In this document: one piece after another, positions 7,026-16,046 of the stretch
How positions within the stretch are numbered: position 1 is the first letter of the stretch
Layout of the letters: each line of letters begins with the position of its first letter
Source of the DNA: an uncultured Thermoproteales archaeon
GTDB lineage: Archaea; Thermoproteota; Thermoprotei; Thermofilales; B9-G17
Length of the DNA stretch: 24,000 bases
Assembly (NCBI GenBank): GCA_964550975.1
Contig: CAZKAY010000005.1
Span: 1-24,000, forward strand
Reading direction: 5' to 3'
The notes under the pieces: generated by a model
Databases searched by the model: none
What the model was told of the DNA's origin: nothing
Seen by the model: the letters and a program-made list of their open reading frames with translations, nothing else
Position numbers and translations under genes: made by a program

Positions 7026-7113
7026 TGGGCCCGGTGGGACTTGAACCCACGATTCGGGCTTCAACAGTCCCCCGCCACGTCAGGGCGATGTCATGCCGCT
7101 AGACTACGGGCAG
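7026..7113 (-). tRNA. tRNA-Val (anticodon GAC) with ~16 extra nt between anticodon stem and T stem and an unpaired 5' CU
   Basis: The reverse complement reads CTGCCCG TA GTCT-AGCGGCA-TGAC A TCGCC-CTGACGT-GGCGG GGGACTGTTGAAGCCCGAATC GTGGG-TTCAAGT-CCCAC CGGGCCC A. There is no anticodon-loop intron. The 21-nt variable region is too long for a class I tRNA. Confidence 0.8.
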
Positions 7114-7218
7114 TAATTAATAAGCAACATGTAATATATGAATTTTATGCTACCAATTGAGGAAAACTTAATAAATGACTAATTCATTTGTCTCCTAAGA
7201 ATTAGTGCTGAGGGATGT

Positions 7219-8454: not shown

Positions 8455-8964
8455 ATGATAGAGACTAAGATAATCGAAAGAGAAGTTTTTATTCAAAACA
8501 AAGATGAGGGAAGTCGATTTTATAACAATGGATATGGTATATGGTGTGAACAAGGGCTAAAGCTTTCATTAGTAGAGGCGTTATACCTAGTTGAGAAGGG
8601 AGAAATAGTTATAAAAGATGAAAATGATAAAACTTTGACATTAAAAGATATAGTAAACCTATTTTCAAAAATGGATAAAAAATTCTGGTTAAAGTATTCT
8701 ATATATAATGATTTGAAAAAGAGAGGATTTAACGTTAAACCAGGTTTTTCAGAGGAGGAGATAGAATTTTTAATGGGAGAGGGAGGTAAGAAGTTTTCAT
8801 TTAATTATATAGTAATTGGATTAGAAGAGGGAGTAAAATTGGATTTTAATAGTTTAACACAAATGGTGGATGAAGCATTAAGGTCTCAAAAGGAATTAAT
8901 ACTTGCAATTATAGATAAAGAAGGAAATATTTCTTACTATACTGTTACTAAACTAATAAGATAA
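8455..8964 (+). CDS. tRNA-splicing endonuclease family protein, probably the non-catalytic (structural, beta) subunit
   Basis: 169 aa. LSLVEALYL, YNDLKKRGFNVKPG and ELILAIIDKEGNISYYTV align with M. jannaschii EndA as I recall it. The positions of the catalytic Tyr and His read M and F here (IEFLMGEG, KKFSFNY), while the Lys position is kept. Confidence 0.7.
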   Translation: MIETKIIEREVFIQNKDEGSRFYNNGYGIWCEQGLKLSLVEALYLVEKGEIVIKDENDKTLTLKDIVNLFSKMDKKFWLKYSIYNDLKKRGFNVKPGFSEEEIEFLMGEGGKKFSFNYIVIGLEEGVKLDFNSLTQMVDEALRSQKELILAIIDKEGNISYYTVTKLIR

Positions 8965-8965
8965 G

Positions 8966-9061
8966 CGCCGCGGGTGGGATTTGAACCCACGAGGCCTTTC
9001 GGCCAAGGGGCTCGCCAGTTTTTAGCAACCCCTCGCCCTAACCTGACTAGGCGACCGCGGC
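8966..9061 (-). tRNA. tRNA-Ser (anticodon GCT), class II, with a ~11-nt anticodon-loop intron
   Basis: 96 nt. GCCGCGG/CCGCGGC plus G, anticodon stem AGGGG/CCCCT enclosing TTGCTA-AAAACTGGCGA-G, variable arm GGCC-GAAA-GGCC, T arm GTGGG-TTCAAAT-CCCAC. It starts 2 nt beyond the stop codon of the EndA-like gene on the opposite strand. Confidence 0.85.
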
Positions 9062-9084
9062 AAAATAAATATACGTGTTCGAAG

Positions 9085-9092
9085 ATATATAT
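9085..9092 (-). promoter_or_regulatory. TATA-like box (ATATATAT) for tRNA-Ser(GCT)
   Basis: Centred about 27-28 nt upstream of G1 of the tRNA (9061). Confidence 0.4.
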
Positions 9093-9097
9093 TTTTC

Positions 9098-10450
9098 TTA
9101 TGTGAAATACGCTTGTCTTAGATAATGATTATATTGAGTCCTGGGACTTATTTCGTATGCAATATTTTTTAACATAAGTTCTCTTATTTCCTTTAAGCTT
9201 GTTGCTCTGTATAGAACCCAGCTTAATTTTACAAAGGCTGTTTCAGAAAGCATATCTTCACATGGAATAACTCCCATTTTTAGTAATTCTATACCTCTCC
9301 TATATACATTTAAGTTTACTCTCCCCCATATACATTGAGAGGTTATTGCCACTGGTATTTCTTCATCAATTGCTCTTTTAATTGATTTAAGTAACTTTTT
9401 GCCCACATGTCCTAATCCGGTGCCTTCAATCACAATTCCCTTATAGTTTAGGTCTATCAATCTATCAATTATTTCTCCTTCCATTCCAGGGAAAAATTTT
9501 ATCAATGCAACTTTTTCTTCAAAGCCGTTTTCCAGAGAAATTTTTCCTCCTACTCTTTTTCTAACATTTTTTGTTAACATTACTATTTCTCCATCTTTTA
9601 CCATAGCTATTGGGCTAGAATTAATCGACTGAAATGCGTCACGTCTACTAGTATGACATTTCCTAACTCTAGTACCTCTATGAACTAGCACTATATCATC
9701 ACTAGTATCTCCATGCATTGCGACTACAACTTCACCGAAAATAGCCTTCGTAGCTATAACAAAAGATGAATAAAGATTAAGTATAGTGTCTGAAGAGGGT
9801 CTGTCAGATGATCGCTGAGCACCTACAAGTATAACTGGTCCTGGAAGGTTCCTCAGAGAAAAGCTTAATGCAGCGGCAGTGTAGCCCATAGTATCAGTAC
9901 CATGCGCTACTATTATCCCGGAAATCTCTTCTTCCAAATATTTTTCATAAATTTTTTCTGCAAGAGTGCTCCATTTATTAGGATCCATATCTTCACTAAA
10001 AATACTAAACACCATTTCTACTTTAATGTTGGCTATCTCCTCTAACTCCGGAATCATTGTATATATATCCCGTGGTGTATAAAAAGGGTATACCGCACCA
10101 GTTTTATAGTCAATACGCGAGGCAATAGTTCCTCCGGTACCAAGTATTATAACTGTGGGAAGTGATGGATTGTAGTTTATTTCTTTATACTTTTTAAGAA
10201 TAGGTTTCACGTACTTTTTTAGAAGTCTGATCTTTTCAACTTTAGCAATGTTTATACCAATATTATAACCATTTTTTAATTTCAATATTATACAGTCAGG
10301 ATCTCCATACTGAGGTCTAGGCATCACTATTCCTTCAATTCTATTACCATTGGTCAATGATATTGAAATAGCATCAAATACATCTATGTTATTTTGACTA
10401 AATAAAATTCTTATCTTTTCACTATATCCTTGTTTTTCCATCCTGTTCAC
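9098..10450 (-). CDS. gatD: Glutamyl-tRNA(Gln) amidotransferase subunit D
   Basis: 450-aa ORF with an asparaginase-type domain (ILGTGGTIAS, AHGTDTMGYTAAALSF) behind a GatD-type N-terminal domain. GTG at 10450 or ATG at 10441. Confidence 0.9.
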   Translation of the reverse strand: MNRMEKQGYSEKIRILFSQNNIDVFDAISISLTNGNRIEGIVMPRPQYGDPDCIILKLKNGYNIGINIAKVEKIRLLKKYVKPILKKYKEINYNPSLPTVIILGTGGTIASRIDYKTGAVYPFYTPRDIYTMIPELEEIANIKVEMVFSIFSEDMDPNKWSTLAEKIYEKYLEEEISGIIVAHGTDTMGYTAAALSFSLRNLPGPVILVGAQRSSDRPSSDTILNLYSSFVIATKAIFGEVVVAMHGDTSDDIVLVHRGTRVRKCHTSRRDAFQSINSSPIAMVKDGEIVMLTKNVRKRVGGKISLENGFEEKVALIKFFPGMEGEIIDRLIDLNYKGIVIEGTGLGHVGKKLLKSIKRAIDEEIPVAITSQCIWGRVNLNVYRRGIELLKMGVIPCEDMLSETAFVKLSWVLYRATSLKEIRELMLKNIAYEISPRTQYNHYLRQAYFT

Positions 10451-10755: not shown

Positions 10756-10775
10756 CACAACTTACGATATTTATT

Positions 10776-10864
10776 CTGCCCGTAGTCTAGTGGTTAGGAT
10801 TTCACTCTTACGAGGATTAACATTAAGATAGGTGAGGACCCCGGTTCGAATCCGGGCGGGCCCA
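10776..10864 (+). tRNA. tRNA-Val (anticodon TAC) with a 17-nt intron at 37/38 and an unpaired 5' CU
   Basis: CTGCCCG TA GTCT-AGTGGTTA-GGAT T TCACT-CTTACG[AGGATTAACATTAAGAT]A-GGTGA GGAC CCCGG-TTCGAAT-CCGGG CGGGCCC A. Confidence 0.8.
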
Positions 10865-10958
10865 TTTATCTCTTCTATAAATCAATTTACTATAATTTAT
10901 TATTGAAAAGAAAGATAAATTTAAACTAATATAAAGTCTTTGAATATTAGGGGATATT

Positions 10959-15609: not shown

Positions 15610-15695
15610 TGCCCGGGGAGGGATTTGAACCCTCGACCCTCCGGTTTCAGATGTCATCTTCAGCCGGATGCTCTCCCAGTCTGAGCTACCCGGGC
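15610..15695 (-). tRNA. tRNA-Phe (anticodon GAA) with a ~12-nt anticodon-loop intron
   Basis: GCCCGGG TA GCTC-AGACTGGGA-GAGC A TCCGG-CTGAAG[ATGACATCTGAA]A-CCGGA GGGTC GAGGG-TTCAAAT-CCCTC CCCGGGC A. Confidence 0.9.
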
Positions 15696-15937
15696 GTCTA
15701 ATAATATTAACATATGCAGATTTATAAAATTTTCTAAATGCATGAGGTTAATAGTGTTTTCATTACAAATTCTTGATAGTTTCTAGTCCCATAATGGACT
15801 TGGAATTTTTTCAATATAACTATATATTTAGAAATTACAGAGAATAGGTGTTATCTTATAAAATTAAAACTCGTTACTATGCTGATAGAGAAAAAAACAT
15901 AAATAAGCCTAAACAATATTTTAATAAGCATATTATT

Positions 15938-16024
15938 GGGGCCGTAGTCTAGCTTGGTATGATGCGTGGCTTGGGTCTAAGGCAAGAACCCACGTGGACC
16001 GGGGTTCAAATCCCCGCGGCCCCA
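15938..16024 (+). tRNA. tRNA-Pro (anticodon TGG) with a ~13-nt anticodon-loop intron
   Basis: GGGGCCG ... CGTGG-CTTGGG[TCTAAGGCAAGAA]C-CCACG TGGAC CGGGG-TTCAAAT-CCCCG CGGCCCC A. Confidence 0.85.
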
Positions 16025-16046
16025 TAATTACTACTAAGTGGGAAAT

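Follow-up and report, generated by a model that had tools for sequence, protein, structure and literature searches.

Non-canonical bulge-helix-bulge (BHB) introns in archaeal transfer RNA (tRNA) genes were reportedly described by Marck and Grosjean in 2003 and by Sugahara et al. in 2008. The site between positions 45 and 46 is among the listed non-canonical intron positions (PMC4090602), and the relaxed HBh′ class of splice motif is accepted by Crenarchaeota with an (αβ)2 EndA endonuclease (PMC3241643, PMC5829648). Annotated archaeal tRNA genes have been stated to carry no 5′ mismatches (PMC3061083, PMC4284800). Archaeal Thg1-like proteins (TLPs) were found to repair 5′-truncated tRNAs in vitro (PMC3061083, PMC6471195), and the role of the archaeal and bacterial Thg1-like polymerases in the cell has been an open question since 2010. 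Here, we describe a tRNA-Val(GAC) gene on the minus strand of a 24,000-nt stretch of DNA from an uncultured Thermoproteales archaeon (positions 1 to 24,000 of contig CAZKAY010000005.1, assembly GCA_964550975.1; the whole stretch is referred to as the window). The gene does not encode the first two nucleotides of its acceptor stem, and it carries an insert in its variable region. From sequence comparison, it appears reasonably likely that both features are resolved during maturation, the insert by splicing and the 5′ end by TLP repair.

Read directly, the gene is CUGCCCG UA GUCU AGCGGCA UGAC A UCGCC CUGACGU GGCGG [GGGACUGUUGAAGCCCGAAUC] GUGGG UUCAAGU CCCAC CGGGCCC A. The features that concern its identity and its 5′ end are as follows (Sprinzl numbering):

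7026 to 7113, minus strand: tRNA-Val(GAC) gene, 88 nt as encoded (ARAGORN; Rfam RF00005, 38.4 bits; five other assemblies).
7079 to 7081, minus strand: anticodon GAC (ARAGORN).
7112 to 7113, minus strand: gene positions 1 and 2 (C and U), probably a promoter-proximal spacer and not tRNA sequence (flagged as non-standard by the covariance model; T-arm-anchored script; promoter geometry).
7111, minus strand: G3, where pairing with the 3′ strand begins, directly after a pyrimidine; putative transcription start (promoter distance).

C1 and U2 face C72 and C71, and the Rfam tRNA model flagged both pairs as non-standard and placed a 17-nt insertion in the variable region. A first-pass annotation, made from the letters of the window alone, had pointed out the unpaired 5′ CU, the uninterrupted anticodon loop, the 21 nt at 7051-7071 between the anticodon stem and the T stem, and the likeness of the CTGCCCG start (opposite CGGGCCC) to that of the Val(UAC) gene. 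Direct reading bore out each of these observations, including the coordinates and bases of the 21-nt segment. Covariance-model folding, which the annotation had also named, kept the extra nucleotides in the variable region and did not restore pairs 1:72 and 2:71. The same CUGCCCG start was found in the sibling gene:

10776 to 10864, plus strand: tRNA-Val(UAC), with a canonical intron at 37/38 (Rfam; T-arm-anchored script).

The source genome is a 1.99-Mb draft in 157 contigs, with 31.7% G+C, in which the archaeal signal recognition particle RNA is present. A T-arm-anchored script was applied to its tRNA genes, of which about 40 are genuine. Pairs 1:72 and 2:71 were broken in exactly five: Val(GAC), Val(UAC), Val(CAC), Arg(GCG), and the elongator Met. 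All five read YUGCCCG opposite CGGGCCC-A73, with G1 and G2 not encoded, and every other tRNA gene of the genome has seven of seven acceptor pairs. The affected set includes all three Val genes and the only elongator Met gene; a whole-genome covariance search detected no second Val(GAC) gene and no further Val, Met, or Arg(GCG) copy. Five independent metagenome assemblies, with record names that refer to hydrothermal vents and sediments, contain the same locus at about 99% identity. Four of them have exactly the same Val(GAC) gene, both at the CU and in the insert, and the fifth has a single change (G46 to A, in a bulge of the splice motif described below). Conservation across independent assemblies indicates that the CU and the insert are not assembly errors.

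The comparison set consisted of 120 genomes of the class (41 of the order and 79 others), in which the sister genus is represented by the only other genome of the same family. That genome gave 43 tRNA hits, 12 of which lack one to three pairing 5′ nucleotides. Their 5′ strands are:

Met: UGG...
Lys(UUU): CGG...
Gly(UCC): CCGGCCG
Arg(CCU): UGG...
Ala(CGC): ACGCCGG
Gly(GCC): UUCGCCG
Pro(CGG): UAUGCCG
Val(CAC): UGG...
Arg(CCG): UUG...
Arg(UCU): GUG...
Arg(UCG): UGG...
Ala(GGC): UGG...

The most extreme of these are Gly(GCC) and Pro(CGG) (contigs C3:260430-260497 and C8:29827-29893), in which three 5′ nucleotides are missing and the model aligns over positions 4-67 only. Mismatches are confined to acceptor pairs 1-3 in the five genes here and the 12 of the sister genus. 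In all 17 truncated genes, the uninterrupted paired run begins with a G that follows a pyrimidine, opposite an intact 3′ strand. The two genera differ in which genes are affected: the sister genus has normal Val(GAC), Val(UAC), and Arg(GCG) genes, and the Arg(CCG) gene of this genome is normal, indicating that the truncated state is easily gained or lost. In two pattern searches over the 120 genomes of the class, the form lacking two nucleotides was found as a tRNA gene only in these two genomes, the other matches being coding sequence. A single mismatch at position 1 (C1 or U1 opposite C72) was observed in Val genes of four other genomes (G025, G100, G101, and G104, at loci L117, L133, L123, and L124), which belong to one other family of the order and to a distant family of the class; the 5′-mismatch trait may be wider than the family studied. 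No report of 5′-mismatched archaeal tRNA genes was found in the literature.

In both genomes, a Gibbs motif search of the 60-nt regions that precede each tRNA gene revealed a motif resembling a transcription factor B recognition element and TATA box (BRE/TATA), RGAAAAAUUUAUAU in this genome and GAAAAGUAUAUA in the sister genus, with promoter positions good to 1-2 nt only. For the gene studied here, the motif is:

7136 to 7149, minus strand: BRE/TATA-like motif CATAAAATTCATAT of tRNA-Val(GAC), starting 36 nt upstream of gene position 1 (Gibbs search).

G3 of Val(GAC) lies 38 nt from the motif start, and in the shortest normal genes G1 lies at 37 nt. Normal genes of this genome have at least 37 nt between the motif start and position 1; in the five truncated genes the distance is 34-37 nt, and G3 is reached at 36-39 nt. 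The 29 normal genes of the sister genus show a commonest distance to position 1 of 37 nt, a median of 38, and a range of 35-48, with half at 37-38. Its 12 truncated genes have 32-38 nt to position 1 (median 34.5) and 34-39 nt to the first pairing G (median 36). Truncated and normal distances differed by the Mann-Whitney test with p = 9.5e-6 in the sister genus and 8e-4 in this genome, values that overstate the case, since related genes are not independent. The promoter has moved inward by about the number of missing bases, and transcription thus probably starts at the first pairing G. This geometry suggests that the missing bases are not transcribed, in which case no excising nuclease would be needed. 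On this geometry, many of the normal genes (those at 37-38 nt) would likewise lack a leader, as has been reported for the tRNA genes of Nanoarchaeum equitans (Randau et al., 2008, as cited in PMC4284800).

Val(GAC) (window 7130-7151) and Thr(CGU) (contig C6, upstream of 23854) have the same 20 nt, CAUAAAAUUCAUAUAUUACA, in their promoters; the two tRNAs are unrelated.

A candidate enzyme for completion of the 5′ end is encoded in the genome. Its one Thg1-family protein, an intact 3′-5′ RNA polymerase (contig C22:15017-15787; 256 amino acids; PF04446 at 102 bits, and PF14413), matches the Methanosarcina acetivorans TLP (5axk) with 162 bits over the full length and contains the RxDG and SDE motifs. 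The gene lies 16 nt after those for S-adenosylmethionine (AdoMet) decarboxylase and spermidine synthase (contig C22:13632-15787), as if it formed one operon with polyamine synthesis. The tRNA-His gene (contig C64:11146-11235) has C73, but an A at position -1, whereas the sister genus encodes G-1; the Thg1-like enzyme is thus needed here for G-1 regardless of the truncated genes. The TLP family was detected by Pfam in at least 23 of the 41 genomes of the order, a lower bound, since the gene appeared to be absent by Pfam from three genomes with a 1:72-mismatched Val gene and a divergent homologue from the same genus then found it in all of them. Every genome found with a 5′-mismatched tRNA gene has a Thg1-family gene. 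Five complete genomes of another genus (g5) gave no match to the Pfam model or to the TLP of this genome, and neither of the two search patterns revealed a truncated gene in them.

The prediction that the TLP adds G1 and G2 after transcription is favored by these observations and is, in our view, somewhat probable. The wider proposal, in which promoter creep has left 12-28% of the tRNA genes in this archaeal family without their first one to three nucleotides, and in which leaderless, triphosphorylated precursors would be rebuilt by the TLP on the 3′ strand, is given a chance only slightly better than even.

The best-surviving alternative accepts the intron described below and leaves the 5′ end unrepaired, either with C1 and U2 unpaired or with a start at G3 and a 5-bp acceptor stem. 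The sporadic single 1:72 mismatches in the Val genes of four other genomes of the class lend it some support. However, a closed acceptor stem of 7 bp is generally required in the elongator tRNAs of thermophiles, and the genes that would have to function without one are, among others, those for the three Val isoacceptors and the sole elongator Met and, in the sister genus, genes that lack three pairs. Moreover, the 3′ strand remains a perfect CGGGCCC template, and the shift of the promoters by the number of missing bases fits non-transcription rather than tolerance. Lack of repair is, therefore, considered unlikely.

Far less probable is an upstream mini-exon that supplies G1 and G2, either by trans-splicing or through the excision of another intron, at 2/3. 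Thermoproteales are known to have introns at 3/4 (PMC4090602), and a GG was found 34-36 nt upstream of Val(UAC), Arg(GCG), and Met, together with pairable 4-mers composed of A and U only. However, the BRE/TATA motif itself begins with this GG and is found equally far upstream of normal genes, and no such site was found for Val(GAC) or Val(CAC). Helices of A and U only are expected by chance in sequence with 68% A+T, and the exons required in the sister genus (G, GG, GCG, and GGG) were not found there. The mini-exon was rejected on the identity of the GG with the promoter motif and on the lack of a site at the latter two Val genes.

The insert of Val(GAC) was scanned for BHB motifs, defined as a 4-bp helix between two 3-nt bulges on opposite strands, with cleavage after the second bulge base. 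Many chance 4-bp candidates were obtained, and a single one leaves all four arms intact. In this candidate, C41-G44 pair with CCCG of the intron, the bulges are GG^A and AA^U (the caret marks the cut), and the junction lies at 46/47. The resulting parts of the gene are:

7069 to 7111, minus strand: encoded part of the 5′ exon, G3 to G46 (BHB scan; gap-free alignment to intron-free orthologues).
7053 to 7068, minus strand: 16-nt intron ACUGUUGAAGCCCGAA, between positions 46 and 47 (BHB scan; same framing in relatives).
7026 to 7052, minus strand: 3′ exon, U47 to A73, with CCA not encoded (direct reading; BHB scan; spliced-form alignment).
7071 to 7074, minus strand: 5′ strand of the central 4-bp helix, C41 G42 G43 G44, followed by the bulge G45 G46^A (BHB scan; relatives).
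7055 to 7058, minus strand: 3′ strand of the central 4-bp helix, CCCG of the intron, followed by the bulge A A^U47 (BHB scan; relatives).

The inner helix has 2 bp and the outer helix 1 bp, which places the motif outside the strict hBHBh′ form and in the relaxed HBh′ class. Removal of the intron gives a 72-nt tRNA with the variable loop GGGUC, which ARAGORN then calls as a plain Val(GAC), and the spliced form aligns without gaps to the intron-free Val tRNAs of relatives (loop UGGUC) at 78-88% identity.

Comparative framing gives the intron its strongest support. Inserts occur at the same place in the Val, Pro, Ala, and Thr tRNAs of relatives, and end in ...CCCGAA^UC or ...GCCGAA^UC. The exact motif CCGAAUC followed by the T stem was found at 24 loci in 10 of the order's 41 genomes, and was absent from the 79 genomes of the class that lie outside the order; a reversed-pattern control also gave no matches. 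Junctions were then assigned by a rule that takes no account of pairing, the first lying 3 nt beyond the anticodon stem and the second 2 nt ahead of the T stem. In 17 automatically parsed genes from ten genomes of the order, 61 of the 68 central-helix pairs were formed under this rule, and the inner helix, which abuts the bulges, averaged 6.4 bp. Eight shifted registers, used as a control, gave 1.1-1.8 of the 4 pairs and an inner helix of less than 1 bp. The helix covaries with the exon, occurring as CGGG/CCCG, CGGU/GCCG, and UGGU/GCCG, and as CCAG/CUGG in Glu(CUC) of this genome. The sole strain variant, G46 to A, falls in a bulge. Taken together, the sequences make it very likely that the insert is a 16-nt, protein-spliced intron of the BHB type between positions 46 and 47, and we infer that it would be cleaved at the two bulges. 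The suspicion of the first-pass annotation that a BHB-type intron lies at a non-canonical site in the variable loop is, thus, upheld, and the splice junctions, which it had been unable to fix, can now be placed. It had further sought the motif in pairing between the insert and the T arm. The complementarity of UUGAAGCC and GGGUUCAA is real (5 + 2 pairs, dominant in the single-sequence minimum-free-energy fold); its proposed part in splicing was rejected, since the pairing is absent from orthologous introns, and so is not what sets the splice sites, and does not have BHB geometry.

The same comparisons bear on whether the mature tRNA instead retains the 21-nt stretch as a long variable arm, giving a class II-like Val tRNA. 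GGG and CCC could form a 3-bp stem, and the inserts of relatives hold a hairpin. However, orthologous inserts differ in length (15 to 28 nt) and yet hold the 4-bp helix and both 3-nt bulges in register, which argues against a retained arm, and the helix uses bases of the anticodon stem. Intron-free orthologues have a 5-nt loop, NGGUC, of the same length as in the spliced form; the retained arm would here have a 10-nt loop on a 3-bp stem, and the conserved variable-arm stem-loop of class II tRNAs was not found. A long variable arm is, accordingly, highly improbable, and was rejected on the spliced-form alignment and the conserved register. Equally doubtful are a decaying pseudogene, for which the low covariance score (38.4 bits) and an unexpressed tRNA-Thr gene with a disrupted acceptor stem in Aeropyrum pernix (PMC3241643) could be cited, and assembly errors; both were dismissed, since no other Val(GAC) gene was detected and this one is unchanged in four independent assemblies, differs at one bulge base in a fifth, has otherwise perfect stems and its own promoter motif, and shares its traits with genes of a second genus.

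The machinery expected for protein splicing is encoded. The catalytic α subunit of EndA (contig C84) matches A. pernix 3p1z_B with 167 bits, and aligns without gaps over the stretch that we take to hold the Crenarchaea-specific loop. This loop confers broad specificity (PMC3241643). An RtcB ligase was also identified (599 bits). A further member of the EndA family lies in the window:

8455 to 8964, plus strand: EndA-family protein, probably the structural (β) subunit of the splicing endonuclease (PF01974, 50.5 bits; PF02778, 46.3 bits; best solved match 5x89, the structural half of the Methanopyrus kandleri enzyme).

This paralogue is weaker than the α subunit on contig C84. In two of the five other assemblies (L162 and L164), a 392-aa TnpB/Cas12f-like gene directly follows the EndA-like gene and precedes gatD; it is absent from the corresponding part of the window (about 8955-10100) and from three assemblies. 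The insertion is a strain-level mobile-element polymorphism.

Other tRNA genes of the genome show related features. In the variable loop of the tRNA-Glu(CUC) gene (contig C73:1398-1487), a 15-nt intron lies at 45/46, and its splice motif has the bulges CG^A and AA^A; the Glu(UUC) gene is intron-free. The tRNA-Arg(UCU) gene (contig C37:11726-11812) has an insert of about 14 nt inside the T loop, GUGGG UUCGA[GACCUGUAGGCGAA]AAUCCCAC, which is a further non-canonical intron; this gene was missed by ARAGORN, and its Rfam match is partial (model positions 8-63). In the window, ARAGORN by default mislabels intron-containing genes, giving Ser(GCU) as Pyl(CUA), Val(UAC) as Arg(ACG), and Phe(GAA) as Ile(GAU). 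In its intron mode, Pro(UGG) was called Ser(UGA). A Ser(CGA) gene that Rfam found was missed by ARAGORN. The mishandled genes of the window are at 2213-2307, 8965-9061, 10775-10865, 15610-15695, and 15937-16025.

Several observations weigh against the combined reading of splicing and 5′ completion. The central helix costs three anticodon-stem pairs and is flanked by an inner helix of only 2 bp and an outer helix of 1 bp. The conformers are near-equal in computed energy (-22.9 versus -23.4 kcal/mol at 37 °C), and single-sequence folding energies do not tell them apart. RNase P RNA is present (RF00373, 137 bits, contig C65); leader removal is thus available, and the start need not be at G3. RNase P could trim the mismatched bases if they were transcribed, and the A at -1 of Val(GAC) could also be a start, the promoter having been placed to within 1-2 nt. 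A start at G3 is modestly favored over an upstream start followed by trimming. The TLP is widespread in the order, and most genomes that have it have normal tRNA genes, indicating that its presence is necessary, not specific. Finally, the genome is 94% complete, and an unassembled intact gene copy may exist.

The proposed maturation route combines both processes. Transcription from G3 would give a leaderless, 5′-triphosphorylated, truncated precursor, in which C41-G44 would pair with CCCG of the intron and the bulges GG^A and AA^U would flank the 4-bp helix. The heteromeric (αβ)2 endonuclease would cut both bulges, and RtcB would join the exons, yielding a 72-nt tRNA (counted with its completed 5′ end) with the loop GGGUC and the junction ...GGCGGGGG^UCGUGGG.... 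The Thg1-like protein would add G2, and then G1, opposite C71 and C72, and the mature 5′ end would read GGGCCCGUAG. In a variant of this route, transcription would start 1-3 nt upstream, the CU would be trimmed, and the same fill-in would follow.

By itself, the Val(GAC) intron is one more entry, of a routine kind, among the non-canonical introns of archaea, and is of use chiefly in gene finding. The 5′ ends carry more weight: essential tRNA genes in two genera probably cannot give working tRNAs without a completion step, and the promoter positions suggest a nuclease-free route. If the proposal is correct, the TLP would be essential for valine, methionine, arginine, and other tRNAs. Apart from tRNA-His, these would be the first natural substrates of an archaeal TLP, and the first case outside organelles of tRNA 5′ completion akin to editing.

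As in known non-canonical archaeal BHB introns, a 4-bp helix stands between two 3-nt bulges and splicing would be by protein; relaxation of the outer and inner helices is usual in Crenarchaeota that have an (αβ)2 EndA, and the near-identical intron ends in different isoacceptors (Val, Pro, Ala, and Thr) match the reported intron spread of the Thermoproteales. The site, by contrast, is 46/47, one nucleotide 3′ of the listed 45/46, which is used by Glu(CUC) of this genome and by Val(GAC) of one relative. At 16 nt, and with an inner helix of 2 bp, the Val(GAC) intron is near the minimum for such introns, and the intron family ending in ...CCGAA^UC was found in this order only.

The promoters resemble those of the leaderless tRNA genes of N. 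equitans in their fixed distance from the tRNA 5′ nucleotide; the present system differs in having an RNase P RNA, and in that the start of the truncated genes would lie inside the tRNA. The enzyme belongs to the same family as the TLPs of M. acetivorans, Ignicoccus hospitalis, and Bacillus thuringiensis that carry out repair in vitro (PMC3061083, PMC6471195, PMC4820378), and the reaction would be the same templated addition of G opposite C at positions 2 and 1. In those studies, however, the substrates were artificial, natural ones not being known, whereas here the structure of the genes would dictate them. Still closer in form is the 5′ editing of mitochondrial tRNAs in Acanthamoeba, Dictyostelium (DdiTLP3), Physarum, and chytrids (PMC4284800, PMC5041481). 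Both systems have encoded mismatches in the first three acceptor pairs, an intact 3′ template strand, a Thg1-like polymerase, and many affected tRNA species, in a set that differs between relatives. The genes described here, in contrast, lie on an archaeal chromosome, and the wrong bases are apparently never transcribed, so that completion would proceed without the excising nuclease of the mitochondrial pathway.
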